A stretch of DNA of 64,000 nt, taken from the NCBI GenBank assembly GCA_965199855.1, contig OZ241326.1, positions 2,016,001 to 2,080,000 on the forward strand. The letters are read 5' to 3'. This document shows positions 55,529 through 62,767 of the stretch, piece by piece. The DNA comes from a bacterium. GTDB lineage: Bacteria > UBA8248. The translations under genes and the position numbers were made by a program. Position 1 is the stretch's first letter, and each line of letters begins with the position of its first letter. Under the pieces are notes generated by a model. It searched no databases. It was not told the DNA's origin and saw nothing but the letters and a program-made list of their open reading frames with translations.

Positions 55529-56239
55529 ATGGACCACGAAAGAATCCTCATCATCGCCGCCCACCCGGACGACATCGAATTCCGCGCCGCGGGCGCCGTC
55601 GCCAGATGGACGCGCGAGGGCCGGCGCGTGGAATACTGCCTGGCCACGAGCGGGGACAAGGGCGTGAACGGCCACAGGGCGCGCTCCATGACGATTGAGG
55701 AGAAGCGCGCCGTTCGGGAGGCCGAACAGAAGAAAGCGGCCTCCGCCGTGGGCGTGGAGGCCGTCCATTTTCTCCGCCACGCGGACGGGGAGCTCGAGAA
55801 CGCCCCCGCGCTCAGGCGCGATCTGGTGCGGGTGATGCGAAAATCGAGGCCCGGGCTCGTCATCGCCGACGACCCCGCCAAGGACGCCTTCGACAGCTTC
55901 TACGGCTACCACGGCGACCACCGCGCCATCGCCAGGGCGGCCTTCGACGCACTGTATCCCGCCGTCGGAAACGAAAACTACTTCCCCGAGCTGCTCGCCG
56001 AGGGACTGGAGCCCCACAGGCCCCAAGAGGCGTATTTCTCGACGATTCCGGACGCCGACGTGTGGGTCGATATCGCCGATACCTTCGACCTCAAGATAGA
56101 GGCGCTGCGATGCCACGAGAGCCAGCTCGGGGACTACGACGACATGGTTTCCCACCTGCGCGAATGGGCCAAGCGCTCGGGCGAGAGGGGCGGCCTCGCG
56201 TGCGCCGAGTGCTTCAGGCGCATGGAGGTGCCGCAGTAG
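55529..56239 (+). CDS. PIG-L/LmbE family deacetylase
   Basis: AHPDDIE, ATSGDKG, HGDH, HESQ. Confidence 0.9.
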   Translation: MDHERILIIAAHPDDIEFRAAGAVARWTREGRRVEYCLATSGDKGVNGHRARSMTIEEKRAVREAEQKKAASAVGVEAVHFLRHADGELENAPALRRDLVRVMRKSRPGLVIADDPAKDAFDSFYGYHGDHRAIARAAFDALYPAVGNENYFPELLAEGLEPHRPQEAYFSTIPDADVWVDIADTFDLKIEALRCHESQLGDYDDMVSHLREWAKRSGERGGLACAECFRRMEVPQ

Positions 56240-56321
56240 CCCGCCGCCCCTCTTTTCACGAGGCGCGCGAGCGGCTACACTGGGGCCTCGCGCGCGTCAC
56301 CCGAAAGCCTTAGGAGCGCAC

Positions 56322-58184
56322 ATGCTCGGATACCAAGGAAAAATCCTGCACGTCGACCTGACCGGCCGCGCGTCCCGCGTCGAGGAGCTGGACGAGTCCA
56401 TGGCCCGCCTGTTTCTGGGCGGAAACGGCTTCGGCGCCAAAATTCTCTGGGATCGCCTGAACCCGGGTGTCGATCCGCTCTCGCCGGAGAACGTCATCGT
56501 CTTCGCCGTGGGGCCCTATACGGACTCCGCCGTCCCCAGCGCGAGCCGGGCGTGCGCCGCCGCCGTCAGCCCGCTCACGGGGCTGTTCTTCGACAGCACC
56601 TTCGGGGGCGCCTGGCCCATCACCCTGAAGCGCACCGGACACGACGCCCTGGTGCTGTCCGGACGCGCCGATTCGCTCACGTATCTCCTGATCACCGAAA
56701 GCGGCGTGGAGTTCCGGGACGCGGCCGACTTGCGGGGAAAGCGGATTCGGGAGACGTGCGACGCCGTCTCGGAGCGCGAGGGCGGCGCCGACGCGCTCGC
56801 CATCGGGCCCGCGGGGGAGAACCGGGTGCGCTTCGCGGCGATGGCGCACACTTGGCGAAAGAGCCGCGACGGCATCAGCGGACGCGGCGGCATGGCGGCC
56901 GTCCTGGGCAGCAAGAACGTCAAGGCCATCGCCCTGCGCGGCCGGGCGAAAACCGGATTCGCGGACCCCAAGGCGCTCCGCGCCTTCGTGAACGACACCG
57001 CGGAGGACGTCCGCACGGGCACGGCGGCGCTCCACAAATACGGCACGCCGATTCTCGTCAACATGATCAACAAGATGGGCGCGCTCGGCACGCGCAACCT
57101 CATGTCCGAGATTTTCGAGAACTGCGAGCCCATCAGCGGCGAATACATGCGCGAGAACTTTCTGGACAAGGACACCACCTGCCTGAAATGCCCGGTGGCG
57201 TGCGGCAAGGACTACGTGATGAAGGGCGGCGCGTTCGACGGGCTGAAATGGAAGCTCCCCGAATACGAGACCATCTTCGCCCTGGGGACCATGCTGGGCA
57301 TCGGCGATCCGGGCGTCCTGCTCCGGGCCAACATGCTGTGCGACGAGCTGGGGCTGGACACCATATCCGCCGGCGTCACGCTCTCGCTCGCCTTCGAGTG
57401 CTTCGAGAAGGGGCTGCTGGGCGAGGCGGAGGTGGGCGCGCCGCTCGAATGGGGCGATTCGGCGACCATGCTGAGGCTTCTCGAGGACATGGCCCACCGC
57501 CGGGGCTTCGGCGACAGGCTCGCGGAGGGCGGCAGGCGCCTGGCGCGGGAGATAGGCGGCGAGGCGCCCGACCTCCTCTACGCCGCCCGGGGGCTCGAGC
57601 TTCCCGCCCACAGCGCCCGCGCGCTCAAGGGCATGTCCATCGGCTACGCCACGGGCACGCGGGGCGGCAGCCACCACGACACCCGCCCCACCCTGCAATA
57701 CGCCTCGGATCACGACAACACCTCGACGGAGGGTAAGCCCGCCTTCGCCGTCCGCACGCAGAACTTCACCGCGCTCGGCGACTCCATCACCCAGTGCCGC
57801 TTCACGGCCGAGCGCGGCTACGGAGCGATGGTCAACGAGAAATACGCCCGCATGCTGAACCTCGTCACCGGCTGGGACGCGACCGAGCGGGAGCTCGAGG
57901 AGACGGGCGAGCGCATCTGCAACCTCGAGCGCGCCCTCCACGCGCGCGAGGGCGTCGCCCGCGCCCAGGACGCCCTGCCCCACAGGGTGATGCACGAGCC
58001 CATCCCCGACGGGCCGCACAAGGGAATGCGCTGCCCGCCCGAGGAGCTCGAGGCGATGAAGGATGAGTTCTACGCCATCCGGGGCTGGGACGAGAACGGC
58101 GTCCCCACCGCCAAGACGCTGAAAAGACTGAAATTGGACGACGTGGCCGACGCCCTGGCCGCGGCGCCGAACGGAGCGGGCTGA
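56322..58184 (+). CDS. aor: Aldehyde:ferredoxin oxidoreductase family (tungstopterin) protein
   Basis: GYQGKILHVDLT, SPLTG, IGPAGEN, GRGGMAAVLGSKNVKAI, CLKCPVAC, PEYET, CDELGLDTIS, RGWDENGVPT. Confidence 0.92.
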   Translation: MLGYQGKILHVDLTGRASRVEELDESMARLFLGGNGFGAKILWDRLNPGVDPLSPENVIVFAVGPYTDSAVPSASRACAAAVSPLTGLFFDSTFGGAWPITLKRTGHDALVLSGRADSLTYLLITESGVEFRDAADLRGKRIRETCDAVSEREGGADALAIGPAGENRVRFAAMAHTWRKSRDGISGRGGMAAVLGSKNVKAIALRGRAKTGFADPKALRAFVNDTAEDVRTGTAALHKYGTPILVNMINKMGALGTRNLMSEIFENCEPISGEYMRENFLDKDTTCLKCPVACGKDYVMKGGAFDGLKWKLPEYETIFALGTMLGIGDPGVLLRANMLCDELGLDTISAGVTLSLAFECFEKGLLGEAEVGAPLEWGDSATMLRLLEDMAHRRGFGDRLAEGGRRLAREIGGEAPDLLYAARGLELPAHSARALKGMSIGYATGTRGGSHHDTRPTLQYASDHDNTSTEGKPAFAVRTQNFTALGDSITQCRFTAERGYGAMVNEKYARMLNLVTGWDATERELEETGERICNLERALHAREGVARAQDALPHRVMHEPIPDGPHKGMRCPPEELEAMKDEFYAIRGWDENGVPTAKTLKRLKLDDVADALAAAPNGAG

Positions 58185-58756
58185 GCTCTCGCGACCACGG
58201 CATGGCCTGGCCCTCCGCGGACTGAAAACCTCCCCTCCCCCGGCTCGGAGAACGGGGAATTTCCCCTGAAAACCGGGCGAAAGCCTCACCGGAAGGGCGC
58301 GGATCGTCCCGAAAAAGAGGCTTCTCGCCGAAAAATCGCGCCTTTTCAACGCTCCGAAACGAACCTCGCGCGCACCTGCCCGCATCTGCCCGCATTTGCG
58401 GCTGTGGGAGCGGGGCGGGCCGCGATATATTCCTGACGCGGGAGAGATGCGCCCGCGGGAGGGAGAGAAGGCGGCGAATCGGGGAGCAAAAGAGGGCGTC
58501 AAAAGGGTGGAAAAAGGGTGGAAAACAGCTGCGTATTTGCAGGATAAGGCCGTGAATTTGTATGTTTTTGTCGAAATTCGCAGACGTTCATCCGCGGCTT
58601 TCGCGGCGCGGGCGGAACCTCTCCGGACGCCCGAAAAGTCCCCTCCTCCCCCCGCGAACTTTGTGACGGGGCCGGAGAGCGAAGGCGGGAATGGAATGCG
58701 TCCCGGCGACCCGACGCCGCCCTCCCCTCGGGGAGCGTTCTCGCCCCCCTTTTTTC

Positions 58757-58990
58757 GACGCGAACGCCCTCGAAAACGGGCGGTTCCCGAACCCGCGCGG
58801 CTCAGGACGATCTACGACACGAGATGCGAAAGCCCCCCAAAACGGACGGTTCCCGAACTCCGTGGATGCAGGGGCGCAGGGATGCGGAGATGCGAAAGCC
58901 CCCCAAAACGGACGGTTCCCGAACTGAGGCCGCGCACGTGAAGCCTGCGGCGTGGATGCGAACGCCCTCGAAAGCGGACGGTTCCCGAAC
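58757..58990. CRISPR. Orphan CRISPR-like mini-array: 4 x 36-nt repeats, 3 x 30-nt unique spacers
   Basis: Repeats at 58757-58792, 58823-58858, 58889-58924 and 58955-58990 (inner two identical: GATGCGAAAGCCCCCCAAAACGGACGGTTCCCGAAC); exact 66-nt period; unrelated spacers; no cas gene seen in the window. Confidence 0.7.
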
Positions 58991-58999
58991 CGCCCCTAC
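58976..58999 (-). repeat. GTAG-type REP-like palindrome overlapping the last array repeat
   Basis: Minus strand GTAGGGGCGGTTCGGGAACCGTCC: GTAG tetranucleotide followed by a GGGCGGTT/AACCGTCC hairpin. Confidence 0.55.
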
Positions 59000-59111
59000 G
59001 AAAGGACGGCCGCGGGGGGCTTCCCCGCCATCGGCGGGAAGCGAGGGACGGAACGCGCGAATGCGTCCCATGAAGGGATCGGCAGCCGGTTTCCGGGGAC
59101 GGGAGAGACGC

Positions 59112-59219
59112 CTAGGCCAGGAGGTAGACCGCCGCGCAGACGATGAGCAGGGCGACGGCGGCGACCTTCACGCCGCAGGCGTCCCACCAGAGATGCTTGC
59201 GCTGTCTGTCCTGAACCAT
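59112..59219 (-). CDS. 35-aa single-TM peptide at the end of the Rieske/cyt b operon
   Basis: GGAGAAG-ATG; MVQDRQRKHLWWDACGVKVAAVALLIVCAAVYLLA*; begins 32 nt after the subunit IV stop. Confidence 0.55.
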   Translation of the reverse strand: MVQDRQRKHLWWDACGVKVAAVALLIVCAAVYLLA

Positions 59220-59251
59220 CTTCTCCGCCCGAGCGAAAGGCGCGGGGACGC

Positions 59252-60031
59252 CTAGATGTTGAACCAGGGGGTGACGAGCACGTATTTCACGTTGAAGCCG
59301 ATGCGCAGAATCATCTTCGCCACCAGCCCCATCATCGTCATATACAGGGACGACTTGATGAGATACCGCACGAGCCCCACGTTCTTCATGCGCTCCCGCC
59401 GCCAGAGGTAGTACGCCGGAATCGAGGCGTACCAGAGCAGCACCATCGCCGTCCCCGCCGCCGCCTGGCCCCAGTAGCTGCGGAAGCCCAGCATGTAGGG
59501 CAGGTCCACGTTCGTGAGCGCCACGACCTTGTGCGGATCCCAATACTCCCAGGGCATGAAGAAGTTCCACCCGGGCCCCCGCAGGAAGGTTCCCTGCACC
59601 ACCATCCACACCCACAGCACCAGAAACCCGAACAGGAAGGTGATGATGGCGAACCTGCGCTCGTGGAAGGTGTAGTAGCCGTTTCCCCGCGGGTTCACGT
59701 CGATGTAGGGAATGGCCATCAGCCCCACGATGATGAGGGTGGGCAGCACGACGCCCGCCATCCAGGGGTCGAAATACACGAGCATCTCCTGAAGCCCCAG
59801 GAAATACCACGGCGCCTTCGAGGGGTTCGGCGTGACGGAAGGATTCGCCGGCTCCTCCAGGGGCGCGTCGATGACGATCGACCACACCACCAGCAGGAGG
59901 GTGATGATGATCGCGCACATGAACTCCAGGCGCGTCAGGTAGGGCCACACGTGCACCTTGTCGTTGACCCGCTCCCAGCTCGTCTTCGCCATGTCCCCGG
60001 CCGAGCCGAGCACCCTGTCCTCTTTCGCCAA
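59252..60031 (-). CDS. Cytochrome b6 subunit IV-like (cytochrome b C-terminal) protein
   Basis: VHVWP, APLEEPANPSVTPNPSKAPWYFLGLQE (APWY variant of PEWY), IPYID. Confidence 0.85.
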   Translation of the reverse strand: MAKEDRVLGSAGDMAKTSWERVNDKVHVWPYLTRLEFMCAIIITLLLVVWSIVIDAPLEEPANPSVTPNPSKAPWYFLGLQEMLVYFDPWMAGVVLPTLIIVGLMAIPYIDVNPRGNGYYTFHERRFAIITFLFGFLVLWVWMVVQGTFLRGPGWNFFMPWEYWDPHKVVALTNVDLPYMLGFRSYWGQAAAGTAMVLLWYASIPAYYLWRRERMKNVGLVRYLIKSSLYMTMMGLVAKMILRIGFNVKYVLVTPWFNI

Positions 60032-60064
60032 TGCTCCCGCCTTTCCCCGCTATGCGACGAAGCT

Positions 60065-60853
60065 CTAGAGCGGCCCCGATATGCCCCCGTCCTTCCGGAT
60101 GCGCCAGAAGTGCACCATCATCAGAATCGACGCTATCAGCGGCACGACGATGCAGTGCAGCACGTAGAAGCGCAGCAGCGTGGGCGGGCCGACGATGGTT
60201 CCGCCCAGAAGCGCCGAGCGCGCGTCGAAGCGCGGGGTCACGCCCACCATTTCGGCGAAGGGCCCCTCGTGCCCCAGCAGGGGCGTGGCGCGCGCCATGT
60301 TGGTTCCCACCGTGACCGCCCAGATGGCCAGCTGATCCCAGGGAAGCAGGTAGCCGGTGAAGCTCAGGAGCAGCGTCAGCGTCAGCAGCAGCACCCCGAC
60401 CACCCAGTTGAATTCCCGGGGCGGCTTGTAGGAGCCCGTCATGAAGACGCGCAGCATGTGCAGCCACACGGCGATGACCATGGCGTGGGCCGCCCATCTG
60501 TGCATGTTCCGCATGAACATTCCGAAGGGGGCGTCGAACTCCAGGAACTTGATGTCGGCGTAGGCGTATTCGCCCACGGGCCGGTAGTAGAACATGAGCA
60601 CTACGCCGGTGACGACGAGATAGAGGAACAGCAGAAAGGTCACGCCGCCCATGCACCACGTGAAGCGGATGCGGATGGCGTGCCGCCTGATTTTCGTCGG
60701 GTGGAGGTGGAGCCAGATGTTGTCCACCACCATGAGAACGCGGTTTCTCGGTGTGTCCTCATACCCGTGACGGAACATCGACCGCCACACCTGGGAATCG
60801 AGAATGCTTCTCTTCGCCTGCTCCAGGCTGAAGCGCTCCTTCAAGCTCGGCAT
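60065..60853 (-). CDS. petB: Cytochrome b6 (cytochrome b N-terminal) with heme ci Cys
   Basis: [47 protein letters not shown]...VHF, GISGPL; GGAGG RBS. Confidence 0.92.
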
Positions 60854-60898
60854 CTGGAACCTCCGCCCGACCGCGCCGGGCACATGGAAAATCTCGGA

Positions 60899-61453
60899 TC
60901 AGACAGACAGAAACGAGCCCGGCTTGTCCCACTCCCCCTTCTCGTGGCGAAAAATCTTGCCCTTGTCGATGAGCAGCTGCCCGTCCTCGGCCAGGCCGAT
61001 TTTCAGCCGCTCGAGCGGCCGGGGCGCCGGGCCCTCGAAGTTCACGCCGGTTCTCCTGAAGCCGCTGCCATGGCAGGGGCACTTGAACTTGTCCTCGGAG
61101 CCGAGATACTTCGGCGTGCAGCCCAGGTGCGTGCATATCGCGCTCAGGGCGTAGAAGCCCGCGCGCTCCCGGACGATCCACACCCGCTCGCTGTTCACGT
61201 AGCGGGTGTCCACCACCCCCACGGCGTAGTCGGCCGGATTGCCCGCCTTGAACTCGGTGGGAGGCTCGAAGAGGACGCGCGGGAACATGAACCGCAAAAA
61301 GCCCAGCAGCGCGATGCCGAGGCTGCCGAGGATGCCGAGCCAGCCCGTGTAGTTCATGAACCGCCTGCGGTCGATGAACGCCTTTTTCCGCTTCGCCTCC
61401 GCCTCGTAGTCGGCGGGCAACCTGATTTCAGGGGCTTTCAGACGAGTGTCCAT
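60899..61453 (-). CDS. petC: Rieske 2Fe-2S subunit
   Basis: DRRRFM Tat-type anchor, CTHLGC, CPCHGS, GPAPRPL. Confidence 0.93.
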   Translation of the reverse strand: MDTRLKAPEIRLPADYEAEAKRKKAFIDRRRFMNYTGWLGILGSLGIALLGFLRFMFPRVLFEPPTEFKAGNPADYAVGVVDTRYVNSERVWIVRERAGFYALSAICTHLGCTPKYLGSEDKFKCPCHGSGFRRTGVNFEGPAPRPLERLKIGLAEDGQLLIDKGKIFRHEKGEWDKPGSFLSV

Positions 61454-61777
61454 GCGAACGCCGCGCTCCCGTTTTCAATCCATCCATCCGGCCATCCGCG
61501 CGCGGGGGCGGCCCGCTTCCGGCTTCCCGCCCGCAGTCATCGCGCGAAGGTGAGCCGATTCGTTCGGCCTTGGCCGTGGGCGGCGCCTGGCCCGGCCGGA
61601 CGCCGGGGCCGTCAGGATGTCCTCAACAAATACCCGAAACCCTTATTACGGACGAAGCCGCCCCGTGTCAAGAGCCGCAGGCGAGTTTCTTCCCGGCCGC
61701 GGCCGCGAGCGTCATCCGGGGATTCTTCGCCTCGGACGCCGGCACGGCTTCGGCGCCTCGCGCCGCGCCTCTCCCCG

Positions 61778-62767
61778 CTAAAGTCCCGCCCTGTTCTTTC
61801 CCTTCACCTCCCTGTTCACCACGTTCACGGGCCATTCGCCCGAGAGGACGCGCCGCACCTCGTTGGGCGCGCCCTGCTGGAGGCCCACCATGGACTGCTC
61901 GCTGTACCAGGCCGCGTGGGGGTTGATGATGACGTTCTCGCGGCCGCGCAGGGGATGCGGGTCGGGCAGGGGCTCCGGGTCGGTCGTGTCCAGGGCGCAC
62001 CCGGCGATCTCGCCTGAGTCCAGGGCGCGAACCAGGGCGTCGGTATCCACGATCGGCCCGCGCGAGCAGTTGACGAGGAAGGCCGTTCGCTTCATCCGCG
62101 AGAAGGCCGCGTCGTTCATCATTCCGCGCGTCTGGGGGATGAGGGGCGGATGGAGGGAGACGAAATCCGCCCGCGCGAACACCTCGTCCAGCTCCGCCTT
62201 CTCTCCCGGGGCGTCGAACCGCCCCTGCTCCACGAAGGGGTCGCTGAACGCCACCCGCATCCCGAAGGCGGCGGCGCGGGAGGCCACCATGCGCGCGATG
62301 TTGCCGAAGCCCACCAGCCCGAGCGTCGCGCCAGCCAGCCGGAACATCGGCTTGCCCGGCGGCACCGCCCACTCGCCCGCGCGCACCCGCCTGTCGTAGA
62401 AGGCCACCTTTCTCGCCGAGGCGAGCAGGAGCGCCATCGTGTGCTCGGCGACCTCCTCGACGCAGTAGGTGGGGTTGTTCGTGACGATGATGCCCGCCCG
62501 CGTGGCGGCGTCCAGGTCGATCGTATCCACCCCGATGCCGTATCGCGCGATAATCTTGCAGGCCGGCATCTTCTCCATGTCCTCCTCCGCTATCGGCCCC
62601 GCGTAGGTGTTCAGCAGCGCCTCGCAGTCGGCGGCCTCGGCCAGAAATTCGGAGGGCGCCTTCGTCCGCATGGCGACGACTTCAGCCACTTCTCCCAGAA
62701 TCTCGTTCTCCACGTCCAGGGATTCCCAGACGTAATCCGTCAGCACGACTTTCGCCTTGCCGGGCAT
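61778..62767 (-). CDS. D-isomer-specific 2-hydroxyacid dehydrogenase (CtBP-like)
   Basis: RYGIGVD, GLVGFGNIA, NCSRG, PEP, PHAAWYS. Confidence 0.92.
   Translation of the reverse strand: MPGKAKVVLTDYVWESLDVENEILGEVAEVVAMRTKAPSEFLAEAADCEALLNTYAGPIAEEDMEKMPACKIIARYGIGVDTIDLDAATRAGIIVTNNPTYCVEEVAEHTMALLLASARKVAFYDRRVRAGEWAVPPGKPMFRLAGATLGLVGFGNIARMVASRAAAFGMRVAFSDPFVEQGRFDAPGEKAELDEVFARADFVSLHPPLIPQTRGMMNDAAFSRMKRTAFLVNCSRGPIVDTDALVRALDSGEIAGCALDTTDPEPLPDPHPLRGRENVIINPHAAWYSEQSMVGLQQGAPNEVRRVLSGEWPVNVVNREVKGKNRAGL

Follow-up and report, generated by a model that had tools for sequence, protein, structure and literature searches.

A CRISPR-like mini-array built on a dispersed REP-like palindrome, probably by off-target spacer integration

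How does a small, strictly periodic array of repeats and spacers come to lie away from any cas gene, on a repeat that belongs to neither of the CRISPR (short palindromic repeats, clustered and regularly interspaced) systems of its host? The question is raised by positions 58757 to 58990 of a stretch of 64,000 nucleotides (nt) of DNA (hereafter, the window; positions 2,016,001 to 2,080,000 of contig OZ241326.1, assembly GCA_965199855.1) from a bacterium of the UBA8248 lineage. An earlier annotation made from the letters alone (hereafter, the sequence-only reading) had described an orphan array with Cas13b-like repeats and had inferred either guide RNAs for a distant, possibly divergent effector or a regulatory mini-array. 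As described below, the array repeat is the left part of a dispersed element resembling repetitive extragenic palindromic (REP) sequences. We consider it probable that the locus is a natural neo-CRISPR mini-array, which off-target integration seeded on this palindrome; the integrase would most likely have been the Cas1-Cas2 of the resident type II-C system, and the array is probably inert. The genome is a single contig of 3.04 Mb with 67% G+C; positions within the array are given in window coordinates, and those of paralogs and cas genes in genome coordinates.

The array consists of four 36-nt repeats (R1 to R4) with start-to-start spacings of 66, 66 and 66 nt, and Tandem Repeats Finder (TRF) reported it with a period of 66 and a score of 184. 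Direct reading and TRF both bear out the exact 66-nt period given by the sequence-only reading, and its three unrelated 30-nt spacers (S1 to S3) also stand, letter for letter, their mutual identity being at the chance level (8, 9 and 11 of 30 positions for the pairs in register; null mean 8.4, 95th percentile 13). The repeats are not all alike: R2 and R3 are identical, whereas R1 differs from them at 5 of 36 positions and R4 at 4 of 36, and the R2/R3 variant was found nowhere else in the genome (first 24 nt, up to 3 mismatches). The locus therefore shows what is generically asked of a CRISPR array, namely, at least three direct repeats of constant length and period separated by unique spacers of near-constant length, but its repeat is not array specific, being dispersed elsewhere as single copies at variable spacing. 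The parts of the array are as follows.

58757..58792, repeat R1: GACGCGAACGCCCTCGAAAACGGGCGGTTCCCGAAC; agrees at 35/36 positions with the only unit of the paralog at genome 1742737
58793..58822, spacer S1: 30 nt
58823..58858, repeat R2: GATGCGAAAGCCCCCCAAAACGGACGGTTCCCGAAC; identical to R3; without the right arm of the palindrome
58859..58888, spacer S2: 30 nt; not present in a close strain's array
58889..58924, repeat R3: same sequence as R2 (GATGCGAAAGCCCCCCAAAACGGACGGTTCCCGAAC)
58925..58954, spacer S3: 30 nt
58955..58990, repeat R4: GATGCGAACGCCCTCGAAAGCGGACGGTTCCCGAAC; agrees at 35/36 positions with the paralog unit at genome 1693947; extends into the remainder of the element
58991..59005, right arm and tail of the dispersed palindrome: CGCCCCTACGAAAGG; after R4 only

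The motif GAATGCGTCCC is found on either side of the array (58693 and 59059). A 78-codon open frame with an ATG start (58691-58927, plus strand) spans the end of the left flank through R1 to R3 and is most likely spurious in DNA this rich in G+C.

The nature of the repeat became apparent from its distribution in the genome. With up to 3 mismatches, the 19-nt repeat core gave 124 genome matches (54 forward and 70 reverse) and its reversed control none, while the consensus core of the element gave 175. Common to the copies of the element is a perfect palindrome, GGGCGGTTC-N-GAACCGCCC, with CTACGAA after it, and 141 palindrome copies were counted at up to 2 mismatches. These copies are clustered (59 of the 140 gaps are shorter than 1 kb, against 6.3 expected) and lie mostly outside long open frames, the longest frame covering a copy having a median of 268 codons compared to 598 at random positions. 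The family thus has the short palindrome, the high copy number, the clustering and the location expected of REP elements. Among 22 other genomes of the genus, 18 have the exact palindrome with its tail, as do 4 of 4 genomes of a second genus; it is in none of the 15 genomes searched from the other seven genera of the family. The array repeat is the left part of this element, and at R4, where the element is complete, it folds with a z-score of -2.07. In the whole genome there are 48 exact left halves; the right arm follows in 44, and the exceptions are R1 to R3 and one mutated full copy. R1 to R3 therefore depart from the REP family in having no complete palindrome of their own. No other arrangement of the element with a period of 64 to 68 nt was found in 42 genomes of the family, which hold hundreds of copies. 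The sequence-only reading had itself named dispersal over the genome as REP copies at variable spacing among the observations that would count against it; such dispersal is what we found.

The genome also contains a single open reading frame resembling a REP-associated tyrosine transposase (RAYT) (2896300-2896848), with HLH and Tyr motifs and a Y1_Tnp match of 34.6 bits that covers model positions 66 to 121, in the C-terminal half, only. A copy of the palindrome lies in frame inside this gene, between the HLH and Tyr motifs (translated ...VRRGGSGTARA...).

Two paralogs show what the site looks like without an array. The left flank and R1 align with genome 1743059-1742731 (97.9% identity over 330 nt), and R4 and the right flank align with genome 1742766-1742694, in the same paralog (97.3% over 73 nt). 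This paralog (1742694-1743059) is uninterrupted, with a single 36-nt unit between the matching flanks. A second paralog (1693904-1694260) likewise carries one unit and is 87.2% and 95.9% identical to the array flanks. Since the paralog is contiguous with one unit, the window locus equals the paralog plus three units, each of a 30-nt spacer and a 36-nt repeat. Unique inserts of 30 bp, each accompanied by a 36-bp direct duplication of the target, are the signature of Cas1-Cas2 integration.

In the genome, a k-mer scan and an offset scan found only three arrays with 36-nt repeats and spacers of about 30 nt, the mini-array among them. In the native array (genome 979895-981377), 23 identical 36-nt repeats are separated by 22 spacers, 17 of them 30 nt and 5 of them 29 nt long. 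This array adjoins a Cas9 of 992 amino acids (aa) at 975 kb (TIGR01865, E = 3.4e-203). The Cas1 of this locus (TIGR03639, E = 1.3e-67, 87.9 bits) and its Cas2 (58.1 bits) are the only matches to either family in the genome. Cas4 had no match in the genome, with a control that matched in 8 of 14 genomes; Csn2 had no match either, but its control matched nowhere, so that this search is uninformative. The native system is of type II-C layout, a single complete adaptation module of Cas9-Cas1-Cas2, which lies about 1.1 Mb (Cas1/Cas2) from the mini-array. The geometry of the two arrays agrees: the duplicated unit is 36 nt as is the native repeat, and the inserts are 30 nt in 3 of 3 cases as are 17 of the 22 native spacers. 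Moreover, both arrays carry the hexamer GCG/GTT across one repeat border (the slash marks the border; ...GGGGCG/GTTCGGG... on the minus strand of the mini-array and ...TCTGCG/GTTGTG... in the native array).

Two further repeat-like sequences were seen at the native locus. One is a degenerate lone native repeat (974969-975004), about 30 nt upstream of the cas9 start, with 32/35 identities and 1 gap, in the orientation opposite to the array. The other (979281-979309) lies between cas2 and the native array and is likely the anti-repeat of the trans-activating CRISPR RNA (tracrRNA).

The third array is of type V. Located at 1,912.7 kb (locus 1912680-1915004), it has four 36-nt repeats GTTGCGGTCAATCCCCACCGCACAGGGGCCTATATC with spacers of 28, 30 and 30 nt and adjoins a 648-aa protein of the Cas12u1/Cas12f type (PADLOC, E = 2.9e-43; at 1,913 kb); the only TnpB/Cas12-like match of the genome lies about 0.16 Mb from the mini-array. 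Its left flank is AT rich, and a tRNA gene lies directly behind the effector start. No Cas1, Cas2 or Cas4 of its own was found at this array, which may depend on the type II module for its spacers.

A scan for periods of 58 to 75 nt listed 25 regions, of which the inspection covered the 7 in which a 66-nt offset stood alone, as distinct from the classes recurring at 64/72, 63/70 and 60. These 7 were rejected as arrays, being tandem repeats in coding sequence or, at 1,228.7 kb, a higher-order repeat. In the latter (1228675-1229200), units with CGATTCTGGATTGTTCAAG stand at 66- or 72-nt spacing within a higher-order repeat of about 204 nt, and it was rejected as CRISPR since its would-be spacers recur. 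Tandem repeats of 33 nt were also seen at 954432-954660, 1969891-1970100, 151917-152100 and 2907721-2907920; judging by their periodicity, they apparently code for 11-residue repeats, and some of them adjoin pairs of palindromes 43 nt apart (e.g., 1970249 and 1970292).

The array was also found in a second strain. An independent metagenome run (X3) holds a close strain, with 7 letter differences and 1 gap in about 485 nt of right flank. One X3 contig of 201 nt covers 58738-58820 and 58887-59004 and reads S1-repeat-S3, with exactly 66 nt skipped, and the bin holding S2 has a depth of 0 in this run. The comparison of spacer content across strains, which the sequence-only reading had proposed, therefore reveals a difference, the X3 strain being without S2 and one repeat on the evidence of one contig with a depth of 6.5. 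This contig indicates that the array is not an assembly artifact, that it is older than the split of the two strains and that its content varies by a whole unit. With R2 and R3 alike, R1 and R4 diverged and the variant of the inner repeats unique in the genome, a recent insertion of S2 into the middle repeat appears slightly more economical than a deletion in X3, as far as one low-depth contig can tell. In run X1, which is likely the source, the contigs stop within R2 and R3 instead, and the coverage of run X12 extends to part of the right flank only. Joints that skip 201 nt and add CC in runs X3 and X8 were rejected as array alleles: they reproduce the single-unit paralog, end where the paralogs diverge and cannot be assigned to the locus. 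Nor is any weight given to the spacers having no coverage in X8.

Taken together, the duplication anatomy, the paralog with one unit, the geometry shared with the native array, the presence of just one adaptation module and the variant in the second strain lead us to infer that an integrase made the array. In this scenario, the copy of the REP-like palindrome downstream of the cytochrome b operon would have been used as a target by Cas1-Cas2, and the integrase would most likely be the only one of the genome, that of the resident Cas9-Cas1-Cas2 system of type II-C layout. At each event, a 30-bp spacer would be inserted and the 36 bp between the staggered attack sites would be duplicated, as at a genuine repeat. 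One attack site would fall within the left arm of the palindrome, at the GCG/GTT border on the minus strand. An attack site inside the left arm would explain why the duplicated unit bears one hairpin arm and why the other arm is kept once, at the R4 end. Three integration events would yield four units and three spacers, and the array would thereafter be inherited, varying between strains by a whole 66-nt unit. It would probably not be used in interference, having no effector of its own and a repeat with which the native tracrRNA anti-repeat pairs poorly.

Several observations weigh against this scenario. First, the empty site is a paralog and not an ortholog. No orthologous empty site was found among 40 other genomes, in which conservation at the matching place is confined to the cytochrome b operon side; in the closest species, the DNA there is unrelated (by eye, an ordinary-looking hairpin followed by a T-run). 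Second, the type V array likewise combines 36-nt repeats with spacers of 28, 30 and 30 nt, and an array of like geometry makes the match in geometry less exclusive than it appears. Third, the REP-derived repeat and the native repeat agree at 8 of 36 positions, against a null mean of 9.3, and share nothing beyond the hexamer. GCGGTT occurs 2137 times in the genome, as its composition predicts, and within every copy of the element; therefore, it cannot explain the choice of this site. Mimicry of the native leader was not detected either, 7 of 8 comparisons between mini-array and native flanks lying within 1 standard deviation (sd) of the shuffle mean; the eighth scored 15 against a mean of 10.0 (sd 1.7), with a shuffle maximum of 18. 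Fourth, the outer repeats resemble the paralogs while the inner two carry a private block, a mosaic not expected from simple duplication. To account for it, subsequent mutation, or gene conversion with paralogs as donors, would be needed, and R4 keeps an array-specific base beside the right flank, which is awkward for a rescue by gene conversion.

Searches for the spacers and for similar arrays elsewhere add to these difficulties. Phages, plasmids and 50 related genomes, IMG/VR not being covered, yielded no protospacer, and hence no protospacer-adjacent motif, for S1, S2 or S3. None of the three spacers has a full-length match elsewhere in the genome. For S1, the best match there is 19/20 (E = 0.01), and phages, plasmids and the 50 related genomes gave no credible one; S2 had no match in the 50 related genomes; and the best outside matches of S3 are partial or straddle a repeat/spacer border, with E-values at the chance level. 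The whole mini-array gave 11 phage records, with lowest E-values of 0.2 (straddling the R3/S3 border) and 0.8, and 1 plasmid record (E = 0.7), while three 60-nt segments centered on the spacers gave partial matches only in 51 genomes of the class (E of about 0.002 to 0.01 per genome). As a control, the native array was searched against phages and gave no match. The native array being equally silent, these collections evidently do not cover the mobile elements of this organism. A pattern search for arrays on this repeat returned 41 stretches of metagenome contigs and 32 of genome contigs, from collections that possibly leave out the genome itself; there were 0 true pairs among the 73 pattern matches, all of them due to chance, as each stretch holds a single match and its flanking units are identical at only 5 to 16 of 36 positions. 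Finally, type II Cas1 occurs in 8 of 42 genomes of the family, and five relatives that have both type II Cas1 and the element show no such array. Such an integration event would thus be rare.

If the scenario of off-target integration holds, one may go further and ask whether the array is still being born. We regard it as less likely than not that it is live on its REP palindrome; in that case, the integrase would have used the element repeatedly despite the lack of resemblance to its own repeat, and the newest event, the insertion of S2, would have followed the split of strains that are about 1.5% apart in the flank. If true, dispersed palindromes would be natural seeds of new CRISPR repeat families or regulatory RNAs.

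Among the alternatives, an origin independent of Cas proteins survives best, although we regard it as unlikely. The array might have formed by recombination among element copies, by RAYT activity or by tandem duplication of a 66-nt unit with subsequent divergence, its CRISPR geometry being coincidental. The element is highly recombinogenic, as its clustering suggests, the array flanks belong to multicopy elements, and a RAYT-like gene is present; the mosaic of the repeats relative to the paralogs and their lack of similarity to the native repeat would also fit. However, tandem duplication predicts that the segments between the repeats are related, and their identity is at chance. RAYT/REP mobility acts on whole hairpins, whereas the array units lack one arm, and such units were found nowhere else in the genome. 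Recombination at large would also have to account for the absence of any second arrangement of this period among the hundreds of copies in the 42 family genomes and for three exact 30-nt inserts and exact 36-nt units that match the native array.

It is also conceivable, though we give it a small probability, that the insertions were made by an integrase other than the resident one, be it of a lost system, of a module borne by a mobile element or of one that feeds the type V array, which has no adaptation genes. The similarity to the native repeat, which does not exceed 6 nt, would be less surprising with a foreign enzyme. The array is older than the split of the two strains, when the gene content of the genome may have been another, and the patchy occurrence of type II Cas1 in the family and the dimensions of the type V array are in keeping with such a source. 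Against this, the complete genome has one detectable Cas1 and one Cas2, the array of the resident module has exactly the required geometry, and no remnant of another adaptation module was seen.

As for function, the hairpin that the sequence-only reading saw in the repeat does not stand out from chance, its fold of -10.3 kcal/mol (z = -0.51) being equaled or surpassed by 57 of 200 shuffles. For two anti-repeat candidates in the cas locus, the pairing energies are -52.5 and -52.3 kcal/mol with the native repeat and only -9.9 to -20.6 kcal/mol with the REP-derived repeat. The mini-array thus lacks the repeat/anti-repeat pairing that marks type II CRISPR RNA (crRNA) arrays, and since its pairing is so much weaker than the native one, Cas9 probably cannot use it. 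The genome yielded two class 2 effectors, Cas9 and the Cas12u1/Cas12f-type protein, each with an array of its own, whose repeats are unrelated to this one. The window holds 21 open frames of at least 550 aa, of which 16 were scanned with Pfam and 3 more with PADLOC only, the remaining two being antisense to the aldehyde:ferredoxin oxidoreductase (AOR) gene and to the cytochrome b operon. No cas or defense family was found in these 19 of 21 frames, in agreement with the claim that the window has no cas gene. They likewise contain no cas13b; no genome-wide search for the Cas13b family was made, and 337 open frames of this GC-rich genome reach 850 codons or more, so that a remote effector is formally possible. 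Between 58150 and 59300 there are 0 promoter-like sites and 1 terminator-like site, against 1.9 expected. No Rfam family was matched in 56000-62000 at E up to 1, but Rfam also misses both genuine arrays of the genome, which makes this null uninformative.

Therefore, despite the regular repeat-spacer architecture and the retention by two strains or more, it is very improbable that the locus is a working array of guide RNAs, or a regulatory one, for a distant, Cas13b-like or otherwise divergent effector, given a repeat that is a fragment of a dispersed element and folds no better than chance, the poor anti-repeat pairing, the lack of a promoter-like site, the window frames free of cas and defense families, the effectors provided with arrays of their own and the absence of true pairs in the sequence collections. 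Of the sequence-only reading, the CRISPR-like architecture is upheld and is best explained by CRISPR-type spacer insertion, while the Cas13b-like, distant-effector part is not. Nothing that we found points to a regulatory role, conceivable as one is.

The surroundings of the array are in line with what the sequence-only reading had described, since Pfam confirms that it lies between convergent AOR and Rieske/cytochrome b genes.

56322..58184, plus strand: AOR gene, left neighbor (Pfam AFOR_C, E = 3.5e-123; AFOR_N, E = 7.6e-67)
58190..58756: multicopy element, apparently noncoding, forming the left flank of the array; paralogs in the genome
59112..61453, minus strand: Rieske/cytochrome b/petD-like operon with a small terminal open frame, right neighbor (Pfam Rieske, Cytochrome_B, Cytochrom_B_C)

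From window position 59111 on, the cytochrome b operon is kept at 81 to 89% in 22 other genomes of the genus that were searched. The left-flank element (58190-58756) has paralogs at 1693940-1694527, 1742730-1743249 and 1609062-1609501 that are 87 to 93% identical, besides at least 25 shorter copies in the genome. This element, of about 600 nt and just downstream of AOR, has an AT-rich core of about 80 nt (58505-58586) with at least 25 genome copies, usually 20 to 250 nt from a copy of the palindrome. In run X1, the bins of this core reach about 23 to 45 times the single-copy depth.

The array bears on the open question of where new CRISPR arrays and repeat families come from; off-target integration has been shown in Escherichia coli under overexpression. 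The present locus is a natural candidate with unusually complete internal evidence: a paralog that preserves the empty site, a matching geometry, truncated palindromes that are unique in the genome and an allele that differs by one unit between strains. It also raises REP-like palindromes as possible seeds of CRISPR arrays. In a full-text literature search, from which most subscription journals lie outside, no paper was found that joins REP elements with Cas1 and spacer integration.

A comparison with known systems places the locus more precisely. Type VI-B arrays have a 36/30 geometry, and this is all that the mini-array shares with them: there is no cas13b or other effector in the window, the repeat has no significant hairpin, and it is part of a dispersed element. 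CRISPR finders will report the array as an orphan, and reasoning from the geometry of the repeat would wrongly place it in type II or type VI-B. With the resident type II-C array it has in common the 36-nt repeat, the 30-nt spacer and GCG/GTT across one border; it differs from that array in its unrelated repeat (8/36), in having no comparable anti-repeat partner and no adjacent cas genes, and in its nonidentical repeats. The REP and REPIN (REP doublets forming hairpins) systems with their RAYT resemble the family from which the repeat derives, in the short GC-rich palindrome, the approximately 140 to 175 clustered copies, the presence in 18 of the 22 other genomes of the genus and the RAYT-like HUH/Tyr gene. 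Unlike REP or REPIN copies, the array units lack one palindrome arm, share a direct orientation and a fixed 66-nt period and are separated by unique 30-nt inserts.

Most isolated arrays share the repeat of their cognate system. The repeat of the mini-array is, in contrast, unrelated to those of both resident systems and is a member of a dispersed family. Sharing of the cognate repeat is stated for mini-arrays in viruses, and work citing Shmakov (2020) names off-target acquisition among three origins proposed for isolated arrays. Like the isolated arrays described there, the mini-array is small and lies far from the cas genes of a genome that has a CRISPR-Cas system.

The closest counterpart is found in the off-target integration by Cas1-Cas2 elsewhere in the E. 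coli genome, which gives rise to neo-CRISPR arrays (Nivala, Shipman and Church 2018, as described in papers that cite it). In Pyrococcus, off-target integration sites are reported to share features with the repeats, and one preprint calls the off-target evidence from two species besides E. coli circumstantial. As far as these accounts go, the neo-CRISPR arrays and the locus described here have in common a resident Cas1-Cas2, a spacer-sized insert between direct duplications of the target, a site away from the cas locus and repeated events that build up a small array. Measured against the same accounts of E. coli, our case is natural and not a product of overexpression, it would be of type II and not of type I-E, its target is a REP-like palindrome without overall similarity to the native repeat, and the array has existed long enough for divergence among its repeats and is common to two strains. 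The locus thus offers a concrete and testable natural case for the birth of a CRISPR array de novo.

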